The translations under genes were made by a program, and so were the position numbers. A stretch of 64,000 nt of DNA from positions 256,001-320,000 of the forward strand of contig CAWAOD010000014.1 of assembly GCA_963783575.1 (NCBI GenBank), read 5' to 3'. Numbering within the stretch: position 1 is the first letter of the stretch; each line of letters starts with the position of its first letter. A model generated the notes under the pieces. That model did not search any database. It had not been told where the DNA came from and saw only the letters and a list, made by a program, of their open reading frames with translations. The DNA comes from an uncultured Spirochaetota bacterium (GTDB lineage Bacteria; Spirochaetota; Brevinematia; Brevinematales; JAOACQ01). This document shows, piece by piece, positions 42,902 through 46,453 of the stretch.

Positions 42902-43675
42902 ATGAAAATAACTATTAAAAGTATATATGTAATGCTGATTATGTTTCTGGCAGTGTTTAACCTATGGTCTCTTCCTCAGGTAATGGACATAGTAAAACAG
43001 ATTGATGACCACCAGCATCTGGGTTCCGACATTTCCGCAAAGGCGGTTCTTACTCAGCAGAAAGTCGGACAGGGAATTAAAATATTTGAATCAATCTATT
43101 ACAGACGTGATAAAGATGATTCTTTTCTTATTGTAATGACAGCCCCGGATTCTGAAAAAGGCAATGGTTATCTGCGCGTGGGAGATAATTTCTGGATGTA
43201 CCGTCAAAATACAAGAACTTTCCAACATATCAACAGAGATGAAAGTATAAGTGGAACCGATGCAAAAGGCGGTGATCTTGAAACAAGAAAACTTGCCGAT
43301 CTGTATAAACCGGAAGTTGATACAAACAATAAGGAAACCCTTAATGAAGAAATGCTGGGTAAAAAAGAGGTTTATAAATTTACACTTATAGGAAAAGTAA
43401 ATGATGTGACATACCCGAAGCAGATTTATTGGGTCGAAAAATCGACTTTTCTTCCTCTTAAAATTCAATCTTATTCATTATCCGGCACATTAATGCAGTC
43501 GTCATATTACCCGAAATATACAATTGTAAGTGAGAAGTATGTTTTGCTCCAGGGTATTTTTGTTGATGAATTTGAAAAGGGTAATAAAACGATTCTGGAT
43601 CTTTCCGGAATATCATTAACATCAATTGAGGATTCGGTATTTACAAAGGGCTATCTTGAAAATTTGAGTAAATAA
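42902..43675 (+). CDS. Outer membrane lipoprotein-sorting (LolA-like) protein
   Basis: Signal peptide; APDSEKGNGYLRVGDNFWMY, SISGTD, YPKQIYWVEK, FTKGYLE. Confidence 0.8.
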   Translation: MKITIKSIYVMLIMFLAVFNLWSLPQVMDIVKQIDDHQHLGSDISAKAVLTQQKVGQGIKIFESIYYRRDKDDSFLIVMTAPDSEKGNGYLRVGDNFWMYRQNTRTFQHINRDESISGTDAKGGDLETRKLADLYKPEVDTNNKETLNEEMLGKKEVYKFTLIGKVNDVTYPKQIYWVEKSTFLPLKIQSYSLSGTLMQSSYYPKYTIVSEKYVLLQGIFVDEFEKGNKTILDLSGISLTSIEDSVFTKGYLENLSK

Positions 43676-43698
43676 TAAATATTTATAAACAAAATATG

Positions 43699-43721
43699 AA
43701 GGGCTGGGCTTTCCAGCCCTT
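43699..43721 (+). terminator. GC-rich hairpin (terminator- or REP-like) just upstream of the IS insertion site
   Basis: AAGGGCTGG-gcttt-CCAGCCCTT followed by TAAT. Confidence 0.55.
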
Positions 43722-43756
43722 TAATATAATATATAAGGAGGTGGTATGATAAAAAA

Positions 43757-43921
43757 GGTTGAAAAATAAAAGAGCCCGCATCAAAATAGATGAGGGCTCT
43801 GAATAGGACAAAGATCGAATCAATTTGTGGGGATAAACCCCGTTAGGAGTATGATCGAATCCTTGTCCGAACCACCATTTTGAGGATAAACCTCGTATTG
43901 GAGTATGGTAATTTTTCAACC
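43757..43921 (+). ncRNA. Putative IS110 bridge/seek RNA
   Basis: Closing stem GGTTGAAAAAT/ATTTTTCAACC; 5' hairpin 43771-43800; two internal-loop arms, each capped by GG-ATAAA-CC and containing GGAGTATG; loop sequences match the insertion junctions. Confidence 0.75.
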
Positions 43922-43977
43922 GGATTAATATACCACTAAAAGATTCAGGCCTCCCAAATAAATTAGGGAGGAAAACG

Positions 43978-44988
43978 ATGGACGCAAAAAAGTGGATCGG
44001 AATTGATATCCACAAAAAGCAAATTACCGTTTGCATTATTATAGAAAACGGTAAAAAATCAATCAAGCAATATGAGAGAAATGAAAAAGAATTAGCGGAA
44101 TTTGAGAAAGAGATTGACAAAGAAACGATAATCGGGATTGAATCGACAAACTGGACATGGGATTTAATCAAACGGTTAAAAGATAAAGCAAAAGATGCGG
44201 TTATTTTCAATACTATTGATTTAAAAAGATTAATGGATCGATTTAAAAAAACAGACAAGGAAGATGCAGAAAGAATGGCGATTATATTACAAAGATTTGA
44301 AAAAGAAGAGCTAAGTACCTGTCAGATAAGAAGCGACGAAGACGCTGAAATAAGAGGATTATTATCTGTGAGGGAAGAAATGGTTAGCAATAAGAAAAGC
44401 TATAAGACAAAGATAATAGCGATGATGGAGTATTGGGGGATTAAAACCGGAGACAAAATGTTCAACAATTTTGAAAAGAACACAAACTAGGTCAAAGAAC
44501 AAAACATACCTGAGAGTATAAAGAGAGCCGTAATCCAGATGTATGTTATGTTAGAAAATCTCAAAGAAGACATTAAGGTACTGGATAAAGAAACAGAAGC
44601 CTTAAGCATAAAGAGACCCGGATATAATGAGATTAAAGAATTAACGGGAATAGGCACAACAACCGGCGCATACATCATAACGAAGGTAGGCAATATAGAC
44701 CGCTTTAGTACCTCAAAAAAATTTGTATCATATATGGGATTAGCACCAAGAGTTAGTGAAAGTGACGGAAAAGGAACAAATGGTCAAATTACACGAAAAG
44801 TAGACGGTGCTTTTTTAAGGGTCATAGTACAAGCAGCCTGGGTTCGTGTGAGATATGATAAAGAAATGAAATCGTTTTATGAGAATATTCGAACAAGAAG
44901 AGGAAAACAAAAAGCGATCATTGCAGTAGCGAGAAAAATTATTGTGGAAGTATATTATAAGTTGTTGAATCTGAAATCTGAGGCTTGA
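43978..44988 (+). pseudogene. IS110-family transposase/recombinase (336 codons) with one in-frame TAG at 44488-44490
   Basis: WIGIDIHK, IGIEST, KKTDKEDA (DEDD); ORF 44539 is in the same frame with GIG..GNIDRFSTSKKFVSYMGLAPRVSES and KAIIAVARK. Confidence 0.88.
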
Positions 44989-45028
44989 ATCTTAAAATAA
45001 AACTTGACAAATTACATAGGAGTTAATT

Positions 45029-46453
45029 ATGTTTAATAAATCAATATTTTTAATATTTTTTGTTTTAATTGTCACAGGGTATTCATTCTCACAGGATAAT
45101 GTCGACGAATCAAGTCTTTTCGGCGATACAAGCTCGGTTGTCTCAAACAACCAGATAATAAATAATACAGTAACTTCAAATATTGATAAGGAATCGGTTG
45201 CTTTCACGGGAAGCATTATGAGTACGGGGCTTTATTCAATGACAAGAGACTGGGTAAATGGCATTACTAATACCGATTTAAACCAGCTTCAAACATATAT
45301 GCAGGGTAACCTTTTTCTTGATGTAAGACTTACAAAAGGTTTTAAAGCTTTCGCGAATATTGAGGCATTCTATACCTCTCAGGGGCAATTGACTCCTCAT
45401 TATTTTTCCGGTTTATCATTACAAACAAATATCATCACAAATTATGGACCGGCAATAACAAATGTTTCATTATCTACAAATAACATTACTTATTATGAAA
45501 CAAACAATACAATTCTTAGCCTGAAAGAATTCTTTGTGGATGGAAATATCAATCACGCGGCTTACATACGCGCGGGGAAACAGGTTGTTCAATGGGGAGT
45601 TAACTATTTCTGGAATCCGACAGATTTAATAAACATACAAAAAAAGACTTTTACGGATTTGAACAATTACAGGGACGGGAGTTATGGAATGAAAATCCTT
45701 GTTCCTTTTGGAACTGTAATTAACTTATACAGTTTTATAGATTTTACGGATATTCATGATCTGGAAGACACTGCTATTGCTGGAAAATTTGAATTCCTTA
45801 TTGCAAACACAGAATTTTCACTATCAGCCTGGGCAAAACGGAATAATCTTCCTGTGTATGGTTTTGATTTTTCAACAAGATTGTTTACCATAGATATATC
45901 CGGGGAAGCCAGCCTCTCTTACGGCGATAATGGAAAGCTATTGGATCTTAATAATCCGGTTGTTATTAAAAACTATGGACAGACGACTACAAACTATAAT
46001 TTAACACAGATTACAAATACCCTGGTTCCAAAATTCAGCCTTGGATTATCCAGGAGCTTTGATTTTATGAATATCAGCGACAGGATAACAACCCGGCTTG
46101 AGTTTTTTTATAACGGGGCTGGTTATGACAGCAATATTTTAAACGATCCGTATAAGAGATACTCTCTTTTGCAGCAATATAATCTTTACCAGCCTAATTA
46201 TCTTTCAAAATATTATATATCGTTGTTTACAACTTATAACGAATTTATTATACCTGATATGACATTTGCTTTTAACGGGATTATGAATCTTGTCGATTAT
46301 TCTTCAACACTTTATGGCACAATCAGCTATAACCCGCTTTATGATTTTACAATCAGCCTTAATATTTTCGGTTATACTGGGGCGACAAACTGCGAATATA
46401 CATTACAGGGTAATACGCTGGCCGCGAGCATTGTTGCAACCATGACCTTCTGA
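45029..46453 (+). CDS. Putative outer-membrane beta-barrel protein of the ABC/LolA-like operon
   Basis: Signal peptide, DESSLFGD, LKEFFVD..IRAGKQVVQWG..FWNPTDLIN, alternating beta strands, C-terminal Phe. Confidence 0.7.
   Translation: MFNKSIFLIFFVLIVTGYSFSQDNVDESSLFGDTSSVVSNNQIINNTVTSNIDKESVAFTGSIMSTGLYSMTRDWVNGITNTDLNQLQTYMQGNLFLDVRLTKGFKAFANIEAFYTSQGQLTPHYFSGLSLQTNIITNYGPAITNVSLSTNNITYYETNNTILSLKEFFVDGNINHAAYIRAGKQVVQWGVNYFWNPTDLINIQKKTFTDLNNYRDGSYGMKILVPFGTVINLYSFIDFTDIHDLEDTAIAGKFEFLIANTEFSLSAWAKRNNLPVYGFDFSTRLFTIDISGEASLSYGDNGKLLDLNNPVVIKNYGQTTTNYNLTQITNTLVPKFSLGLSRSFDFMNISDRITTRLEFFYNGAGYDSNILNDPYKRYSLLQQYNLYQPNYLSKYYISLFTTYNEFIIPDMTFAFNGIMNLVDYSSTLYGTISYNPLYDFTISLNIFGYTGATNCEYTLQGNTLAASIVATMTF

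Follow-up and report, generated by a model that had tools for sequence, protein, structure and literature searches.

An IS110-family element of an uncultured Spirochaetota bacterium that appears to be aimed at Shine-Dalgarno sequences

In the genome of an uncultured Spirochaetota bacterium (assembly GCA_963783575.1), an insertion sequence lies directly downstream of the Shine-Dalgarno (SD) sequence of a gene and carries at its own right end a second SD-like sequence that takes the place of the one it separates from the start codon. The element occupies positions 43741-45022 (plus strand; 1282 bp) of a 64,000-nucleotide stretch of contig CAWAOD010000014.1 (positions 256,001 to 320,000 of the forward strand), hereinafter the window, and its boundaries were defined by comparison of six copies that are 99-100% identical. 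Judging by the domains of its transposase, it is a member of the IS110 family. We consider it likely, with a probability of roughly 0.8, that this is a bridge-RNA-type IS110 element aimed at Shine-Dalgarno sequences; the evidence comes from the insertion sites, from a structured RNA predicted at the left end, and from the joint variation of this RNA and the flanking DNA among relatives.

Insertion sites and the rebuilt Shine-Dalgarno sequence

The source genome (G000) is an 18-contig assembly, with the window on contig C14, and contains six copies of the element: the window copy, C9:167686-168967, C16:217902-219183, two copies on C11, and C12:18649-22461. The window copy is flanked by the SD motif AAGGAG (43735-43740) on the left and by a spacer and an ATG (45023-45031) on the right. 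Specifically, the left flank ...TATATAAGGAG stops at 43740 and the element opens with GTGGTATGAT at 43741; it terminates with ...TTGACAAATTACATAGGAG at 45022, followed by TTAATT (45023-45028) and ATG (45029-45031). In all six copies, the left flank ends in RGGAG directly before GTGGTATGAT, and the right end ...TTGACAAATTACATAGGAG is followed by 5-7 nt and an ATG, with the transposase gene invariably co-directional with the targeted gene. The ATGs at the right junctions open intact open reading frames (ORFs) of 151-474 amino acids (aa) in each case. Three of the five downstream ORFs that were scanned contain Pfam domains (nitroreductase, hexapeptide transferase and lipocalin), and the sixth, the 474-aa gene next to the window copy, has a homologue in 12 of the 12 genomes of the taxonomic family, with a LolA-like ORF directly upstream in six of the seven loci displayed.

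The same placement was found across genomes and in two families of elements. An ATG lies 5-7 nt after GGAG at all 22 right junctions, namely, the six in the source genome, those of single copies in the related genomes G022 and G023, of the metagenomic loci L048 and L057 and of a contig from sequencing run X4, nine from a second family in genome G025, and those of two derivatives (L101 and L102). The left junctions, which were found without GGAG in the query, end in GGAG in 21 of 21 cases (20 AGGAG and one TGGAG). No insertion of the element or its relatives away from an SD sequence was detected among all the insertions examined (22 right junctions). As a background, 1119 of the 11216 RGGAG sites in the genome (10%) precede an ORF start, defined as an ATG located 4-8 nt downstream and beginning an ORF of 80 aa or more; when the flanks are required to be at least 75% AT, this is the case for 765 of 2967 sites (26%). 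Given the 26% AT-rich background, the probability that six of six copies would be located at starts is about 3e-4. The original prediction of RNA-guided insertion at ribosome-binding sites, including the expected enrichment of the insertion sites of relatives upstream of starts, is supported by 22 of 22 right junctions against 10-26% and by guides that covary with the flanks, and insertions elsewhere, the outcome it had named as contrary to it, were not encountered. The right junctions share one further property: a T directly precedes the ATG (TATG) at 21 of 22, compared with 57% of the 1062 SD-led starts in the source genome, and as a result a TATGNN hexamer follows the right-end TTGACA at a distance of 17-19 nt.

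When the flanks of the window copy are joined in silico, the resulting sequence is TATATAAGGAG-TTAATT-ATG, that is, the SD and start codon of the downstream gene, in agreement with the empty site reconstructed originally. Likewise, the preservation of the ribosome-binding site at identical spacing, also part of that prediction, is observed: the right end CATAGGAG supplies AGGAG at the original distance from the ATG (TAGGAG in place of AAGGAG). An empty allele in a related genome was found as far as the architecture goes, with different letters. In G025, a genome of the same genus (57% complete), the LolA-like gene is followed by a hairpin, AAAAGGAGTCTTCC and the ATG of the orthologue of the 474-aa protein (74% aa identity), without an insertion. 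This confirms the architecture of the empty site, the sequence being not identical. The lipocalin locus is also uninterrupted in G025, so that empty orthologous sites are available for two of the six loci; the gene downstream of the C9 copy has only a 28% match in five relatives and is of no use for this purpose.

In both SD-targeting groups, target and right end have 5 nt (AGGAG) in common. Recombination itself guarantees only a 2-nt core at the right junction. We consider restoration of the SD likely to be a selected feature, and the rebuilt SD would keep the downstream gene expressed.

The candidate guide RNA and competing explanations

The 240 nt preceding the transposase gene are predicted to fold into a stable structure (z = -8.2 compared with shuffled sequences). 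The consensus of seven lineages consists of a 5' hairpin followed by two internal-loop modules, with double changes at 9 of 52 pairs; compensatory changes in this alignment affect the 5' hairpin, the outer stem of each module and, in the second module, also the inner hairpin, and include an A:U to G:C change in the outer stem of the second module. In the window copy, the 5' stem-loop (43772-43799, plus strand, like the rest of the RNA; compensatory changes at five of seven predicted pairs) is followed by a first module (43806-43868), the putative target-binding loop, in which the 3' strand GTTAGGAG (43842-43849) has the sense sequence of the SD target. The second module (43871-43909), the putative donor-binding loop, contains a 3' strand GTATTGGAG (43895-43903) that repeats the right end ..CATAGGAG in the sense direction, apart from a single mismatch in this lineage. 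The GGAG noticed originally in both loops was thus located, in GTTAGGAG and in ATTGGAG (43897-43903).

The comparison of the loops with the DNA they are expected to recognize includes two further IS110-type families (famB and famC) that share the left-end TATGAT box and the CATAG right end with the SD-targeting elements and are inserted into non-SD targets (..GCTG-CG-GGGGGC, CACAGAG and CGCGAAG). Among 25 element-flank pairs from the four families, the 3' strand of loop 1 matches the left flank plus core at 5-8 of 8 positions (a score of 3 for the metagenomic locus L052 is caused by a pattern register that is off by one), and the 3' strand of loop 2 matches the right end at 7 of 8 positions in all 18 elements in which both were read; the cross-family control gave a mean of 4.3 of 8, a value inflated by the SD target common to two of the families. 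Guide and flank vary together in nature. In G023, the loop-1 3' strand is UCAAGGAG and the left flank is TCAAGGAG; in L057, these are UUGGAG and TTGGAG; in famC, CACAGAG faces the left flanks CACGGAG and CACAGAG (L016, L019), and CGCGAAG faces CGCGAAG (L031); and in famB, GCUGCG faces GCTGCG in two of three copies and GTTGCG in the third. RNA guidance is supported by this covariation of guides and targets in natural variants. The core appears to consist of the last two bases, AG (CT on the opposite strand) or CG. This placement comes from comparing both loops within famC and within famB; one copy cannot fix the crossover inside the shared AGGAG. With the shared core at the last two bases, the crossover would fall directly after GGAG.

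The layout of the guides differs from the rule derived from IS621. Under the IS621 order, the 5' side of the loop is a sense copy of the left half of the target; here, it is the 3' sides that correspond, to the left flank plus core in loop 1 and to the right end in loop 2. As read from the sequences, GCUCCCC on the 5' strand of loop 1 in famB is complementary to the right target GGGGAGC. The SD-targeting clade has a short, U-rich 5' strand in loop 1 (UUUGU, UUUAU), with no complement of GGAG.

These observations suggest the following course of insertion. The left end would encode a non-coding RNA (ncRNA) composed of the 5' hairpin and the two internal-loop modules. Within it, the loop-1 3' strand (GUUAGGAG here; UUAAGGAG or GAAAAGGAG in relatives) would pair with the template strand of the SD, and the 3' strand of loop 2 (AUAGGAG) would pair with the right end of the element itself. 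The DEDD/Ser recombinase would then exchange strands at the 2-nt core, namely the AG that closes GGAG (CT on the opposite strand). Strand exchange at this core would make the element enter directly after the SD, always co-directional with the gene, and because the right end is ATAGGAG rather than the core alone, AGGAG would be left at the original distance from the start codon. Read-through from host transcription may then serve both the genes of the element and the downstream gene.

Several results weigh against this reading. The guide motif by itself does not account for all insertions being located at gene starts. Compared with the 1062 SD-led starts, the six right flanks show no excess complementarity to the 5' strand of loop 1 (best z 2.4 among six registers), so that only one half-site is visibly specified, and in this lineage the contiguous match between the loop-1 guide UUAGGAG and the most frequent target, AAGGAG, is limited to 5 nt. 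An Rfam search with the left-end RNA matched no family. Four of the six copies in the source genome are defective, and no circle junction, tandem copy or solo right end is present in that genome. Among the nine right flanks of the G025 family, two open short ORFs only (38 and 32 aa). Finally, sister families with non-SD targets end in CATAGAAG or CATAGACG, with CATAG kept at the right ends there as well, so that the SD-restoring end is as little as one base from an apparently ancestral, neutral donor end, and the rebuilt SD could be a by-product.

The last point leads to the possibility that the terminal AGGAG is an inherited donor-recognition sequence, with restoration of the SD being accidental and the downstream genes silenced or expressed otherwise. 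The ends of the sister families are one or two bases away from this sequence, and any right end, whatever its letters, has to be matched by the second loop. Nevertheless, both SD-targeting groups, with transposases only 27% identical, keep GGAG and not GAAG, all the downstream ORFs in the source genome are intact, and the 5 nt shared with the target exceed the 2-nt core that the mechanism needs; hence we regard an accidental origin as unlikely. A somewhat stronger contender, still on the unlikely side, is that selection rather than aiming generates the pattern: every (A)AGGAG within AT-rich DNA would be open to insertion, with survival of the copies at gene starts and loss of those within genes. 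Only a half-site of 5-8 nt is visibly specified, the six insertion sites resemble ordinary SD-led starts in base composition, and half-site recognition has been reported for IS621 in the available part of a recent preprint (bioRxiv 10.64898/2026.08.31.748434). However, with a background of 10-26%, purging would have to be very efficient to leave 22 of 22 right junctions at starts, across several genomes and two families, and dead copies and miniature remnants are likewise found only at starts. Selection and aiming differ only in the share assigned to each factor, and loss of gene-breaking insertions may contribute to the association with gene starts.

The opposite departure would be a guide that reads both the SD and the start codon: AAGGAG-UAUGAU on the 3' strand of loop 1 would pair with the template strand at AGGAG and at TATGA(T) while the spacer of 4-7 nt is looped out, making the element specific for translation starts as such. 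The excess of T before the ATG (21 of 22 versus 57% of 1062) is what such a guide would produce, UAUGAU follows GGAG in every member of the clade, and the donor junction GGAG-NTGG-TATGAT has the same form. We nonetheless hold this to be rather improbable. In the consensus fold, UAUGAU pairs with AUCAU on the 5' side, and because this stem never varies, conservation of UAUGAU is uninformative either way; the G025 family has AUUAAU there instead; the background comes from one genome, the sites are not independent and the spacing varies from 5 to 7 nt; and the T at -1 fits equally well a -10-like hexamer 17-19 nt from the right-end TTGACA. Recognition of the SD by the protein rather than by the RNA is far less probable still: guides covary with flanks in G023, L057, famC and famB, the first two of which still have close transposases, and RNA guidance is established for the IS110 family, according to the available text of two reports (PMC11208160, PMC11187229).

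Anatomy, relatives and derivatives of the element

The transposase gene of the window copy (43978-44988, plus strand) comprises 336 codons and is broken by a TGG to TAG change at 44488-44490 (W171*), so that, on its sequence, this copy is a dead pseudogene. Recoding of TAG or a deliberately split transposase at 44488 was considered and rejected because other copies carry TGG at that codon. Intact 336-aa transposases are encoded by two of the six copies (C9 and C16); apart from W171*, the lesions are E36* in one copy and an 11-bp deletion common to two. In the intact C9 copy, the N-terminal RuvC-like DEDD domain (PF01548, E = 1.5e-17, residues 7-150) is accompanied by the C-terminal Tnp domain (PF02371, E = 9e-19). 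The similarity to the IS621 and ISCro4 recombinases is distant (phmmer E = 2e-7 and 3e-7, respectively; Tnp domain only). The alignment places RVSESDG of the transposase opposite RRYESGS of IS621, and the aligned serine would be the catalytic S241 by the published IS621 numbering. The longest antisense ORF within the element is 191 aa and does not span it. The C12 copy is split by a 2.5-kb IS21-type element on the opposite strand (C12:19698-22235; L006, L007) that encodes an IstB_IS21 ATPase (PF01695) and an rve-domain transposase; the IS21 junction of this copy is also present on a contig of run X1.

The ends of the element, GTGGTATGAT... and ...CATAGGAG, are not inverted repeats, and the flanks share only the AGGAG common to the target and the right end. 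The host SD AAGGAG (43735-43740, plus strand) represents the left target plus core, the terminal AG being the probable core dinucleotide; RGGAG is found at this place in six of six copies in the genome. The right terminus CATAGGAG (45015-45022, plus strand), the left donor plus core, supplies the replacement SD, is identical in six of six copies and has counterparts in the relatives, which also end in ATAGGAG. On the plus strand beyond it extend the TTAATT spacer, the ATG and the 474-aa gene (45023-46453), which has no Pfam match and is kept beside the LolA-like gene in relatives. That gene (42902-43675) is followed by a terminator-like host hairpin (43699-43727, plus strand; stems 43706-43719 on the plus strand and 43721-43699 on the minus strand) that ends about 8 nt upstream of the targeted SD; the hairpin lies about 8 nt from the SD of the next gene both in the window and in G025. 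The only Rfam match, Termite-leu, falls on this host hairpin (43694-43741) and, at 22 bits against a gathering score of 51, was taken as chance.

Promoter-like boxes are located at both ends. The left end carries TGGTATGAT, an extended -10-like box (43742-43750, plus strand) that is present in all four families, and the right end carries the -35-like box TTGACA (45004-45009, plus strand). Joined, the right and left ends read TTGACA-17 nt-TATGAT, a putative circle-junction promoter by analogy with that of IS621 (PMC11208158). In the integrated copy, TTGACA-18-TATGTT (10 of 12 positions; 45004-45033) spans the right junction, and TTAATA-18-TATGAT is found at 43721-43750. No circle junction was detected in four sequencing runs (each at most 0.15 of sampled words). 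The signal scan listed no terminator-like site on the sense strand inside the element, so that host read-through across it is possible. Because only about 8 nt separate the upstream hairpin from the SD, in G025 as well, the targeted gene probably relies on upstream transcription in any case.

The left end also contains a mini-ORF of seven codons (43746-43769, plus strand; ATG ATA AAA AAG GTT GAA AAA TAA), with its ATG inside the TATGAT box and, after insertion, the host SD 5 nt upstream of this ATG. In relatives, ORFs of 5-12 codons start at the same ATG and encode no conserved peptide, and the mini-ORF is probably incidental.

The closest relatives are single copies in three genomes of the same taxonomic family (G022, G023 and G030), with transposases 46-50% identical. 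In G022, the left flank ..TTCAAGGAG is followed by ATGGTATGAT at the start of the element, and the right end CATAGGAG is followed by TAAATGATG; in G023, the left flank is ..CTCAAGGAG, and CATAGGAG is followed by TTAAATATG; in G030, the left flank is ..ATATAAGGAG, and CATAGGAG is followed by the end of the contig. A search of genome contigs for related loci yielded one relative only. A metagenome scan with a 17-base pattern from inside the RNA gave 47 loci, three of which are real elements: L048, with TTCAAGGAG on the left and TAATATATG on the right; L057, with TTCTTGGAG on the left and ATGATATG on the right; and L052, a truncated remnant with a left junction only. The other 44 are chance matches to the pattern. 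A contig of run X4 contains a right junction followed by GATTATATG, and one of run X2 contains a left junction preceded by AATAAATAAGGAG.

The second SD-targeting family, in G025, has a transposase 27% identical to that of the element in the window, with the same placement in eight of eight copies found by protein search and in a ninth copy; the ORFs in the right flanks are 87, 38, 202, 437, 187, at least 467, 270, 32 and at least 71 aa long. In a small tree, the two SD-targeting groups cluster, with weak support (83/88) and long branches. Across the phylum, the pattern GGAGRTGGTATGAT has matches in 21 of 401 genomes. Among the 30 loci examined for it, transposase-bearing elements were found only in the taxonomic family of the source genome, and two left ends are located at contig ends in G086. 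The remaining examined matches are ordinary genes in which SD, spacer and ATGAT match by chance, for example, one starting with MIRGLYIGASGM.

Two derivatives retain the placement. One, on contig C21 of G027 (L101), is a miniature of about 120 bp without a transposase, with the matching ends ATGGTATGAT...CTCATAGGAG; it lies between ATTAGGAG and the GAAAT-ATG of a DUF2442 gene, the SD of which overlaps the stop codon of the upstream gene. The other, on contig C5 of G030 (L102), is a 117-nt solo left-end fragment with the loop-1 GTTAAGGAG as its very last letters; GATAAT-ATG, the spacer and start of a GH16 gene, follows immediately. This end fits a crossover directly after GGAG and is what would be expected as the product of recombination between the target-like guide DNA and a right junction, pointing to the DNA of the guide itself as a potential recombination site.

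Loci of the sister families were found in the source genome at C13:280059-281042, C16:220567-221550 and C5:69345-70328 (L033-L035) and in G022 and G025 (L016, L019 and L031); a distance of 1.4 kb separates one famB copy from the C16 copy of the SD-targeting element upstream of it. The sequence RTGGTATGAT occurs 45 times in the source genome, and several two-copy sets share left flanks and continuations that are foreign to all the families described here; these sets may be further elements or remnants. Separately, contigs C7 (48955 bp) and C17 (13132 bp) of the assembly have a G+C content of 0.52 and 0.49, respectively, compared with 0.33-0.39 in the other 16 contigs, and may be foreign DNA or assembly contamination.

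Relation to known elements and implications

Insertion between the SD and the start codon is not new in the IS110 family. For IS900, the insertion point is CATGN(4-6)*CNCCTT. In Mycobacterium avium, IS900 and IS901 enter the interval from the SD to the start codon, always in the same orientation, as stated in the available text of PMC2942039, which cites Doran 1997 and Inglis 2003; thus, they share both the family and the site of insertion with the element described here. The target motif of IS900, CATGNNNNNNTCTCCTT, corresponds to AAGGAGA-N6-CATG on the opposite strand, and the hed ORF of IS900 has neither a ribosome-binding site nor a start codon of its own (both from the available text of PMC8141618). 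Because the motif is written in the orientation of the element itself, the IS900 transposase is antisense to the targeted gene, whereas here it is sense; IS900 carries the antisense hed ORF that borrows host signals, whereas the present element has no antisense ORF that spans it. Restoration of the SD by the end of the element and the RNA logic are absent from the available portions of these two IS900 accounts (PMC8141618, PMC2942039). Targeting of the interval from SD to start has been known for decades from IS900 and IS901, and the distinguishing features of the present element are its sense orientation, an SD restored by its own right end, the order in which the guides are arranged and a guide that is one-sided.

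Among the RNA-guided elements, IS621 and ISCro4 encode an ncRNA in the left end that consists of a 5' hairpin and two internal loops; their -35 and -10 boxes are divided between the two ends, and their 2-nt core is CT, according to the available text of PMC11208158 and PMC11208160. The likeness extends to the DEDD RuvC-like and Tnp domains, the layout of the left-end ncRNA, the division of putative -35 and -10 boxes between the ends, and the core, which is CT on one strand. In IS621, however, the sense copy of the left half is on the 5' side of the loop (PMC11208160, available text), whereas here it is on the 3' side (7-8 nt), in the reverse order. The target also differs, being a class of about a thousand sites here and one repeated sequence in IS621 and ISCro4, and specification of a single half-site recalls the half-match activity of IS621 described in the available part of bioRxiv 10.64898/2026.08.31.748434. 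The seekRNAs of IS1111-type elements (ISEc11, ISKpn4 and ISPa11) carry the complement of the top strand 5' of the complement of the bottom strand (Siddiquee et al., PMC11187229, available text). This strand order matches that deduced here, most clearly in famB; the ncRNA of IS1111-type elements is, however, downstream of the transposase, whereas here it is upstream, as in the IS110 type. No tie between bridge-RNA or seekRNA guides and SD targeting was found in the literature searched, with most subscription journals and supplements being outside its scope, and the available portions of PMC4607514 and bioRxiv 10.64898/2026.10.21.760802 contain nothing on SD targeting.

These comparisons are compatible with a more specific scenario that we put forward tentatively, at rather less than even odds: this clade would have exchanged a two-sided guide for a single address for a one-sided guide that is the SD itself, possibly also reading TATG, arranged in the IS1111 strand order with the RNA gene upstream of the transposase. 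If so, every SD-led gene start would be a potential landing site, and the donor junction AGGAG-N5-ATG would mimic a translation start. Insertion would be nearly neutral because the right end repairs the SD, and the sense orientation would let host promoters drive the guide RNA and the transposase. Furthermore, short remnants would stay in 5' leaders because the guide's own DNA looks like the target.

The value of the present analysis lies in the RNA logic and the variant layout, without a new principle. For work on bridge recombinases, the elements described here would provide natural guides that are dominated by one half-site and ordered unlike those of IS621, and for genome annotation, short structured leaders between the SD and the start codon could be explained as remnants of such elements. 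If the proposed targeting of Shine-Dalgarno sequences is correct, it would show that an RNA-guided recombinase can be naturally tuned to a class of sites, the most common conserved motif of the genome, rather than to one address, with the damage limited by replacement of the very signal that the insertion splits.

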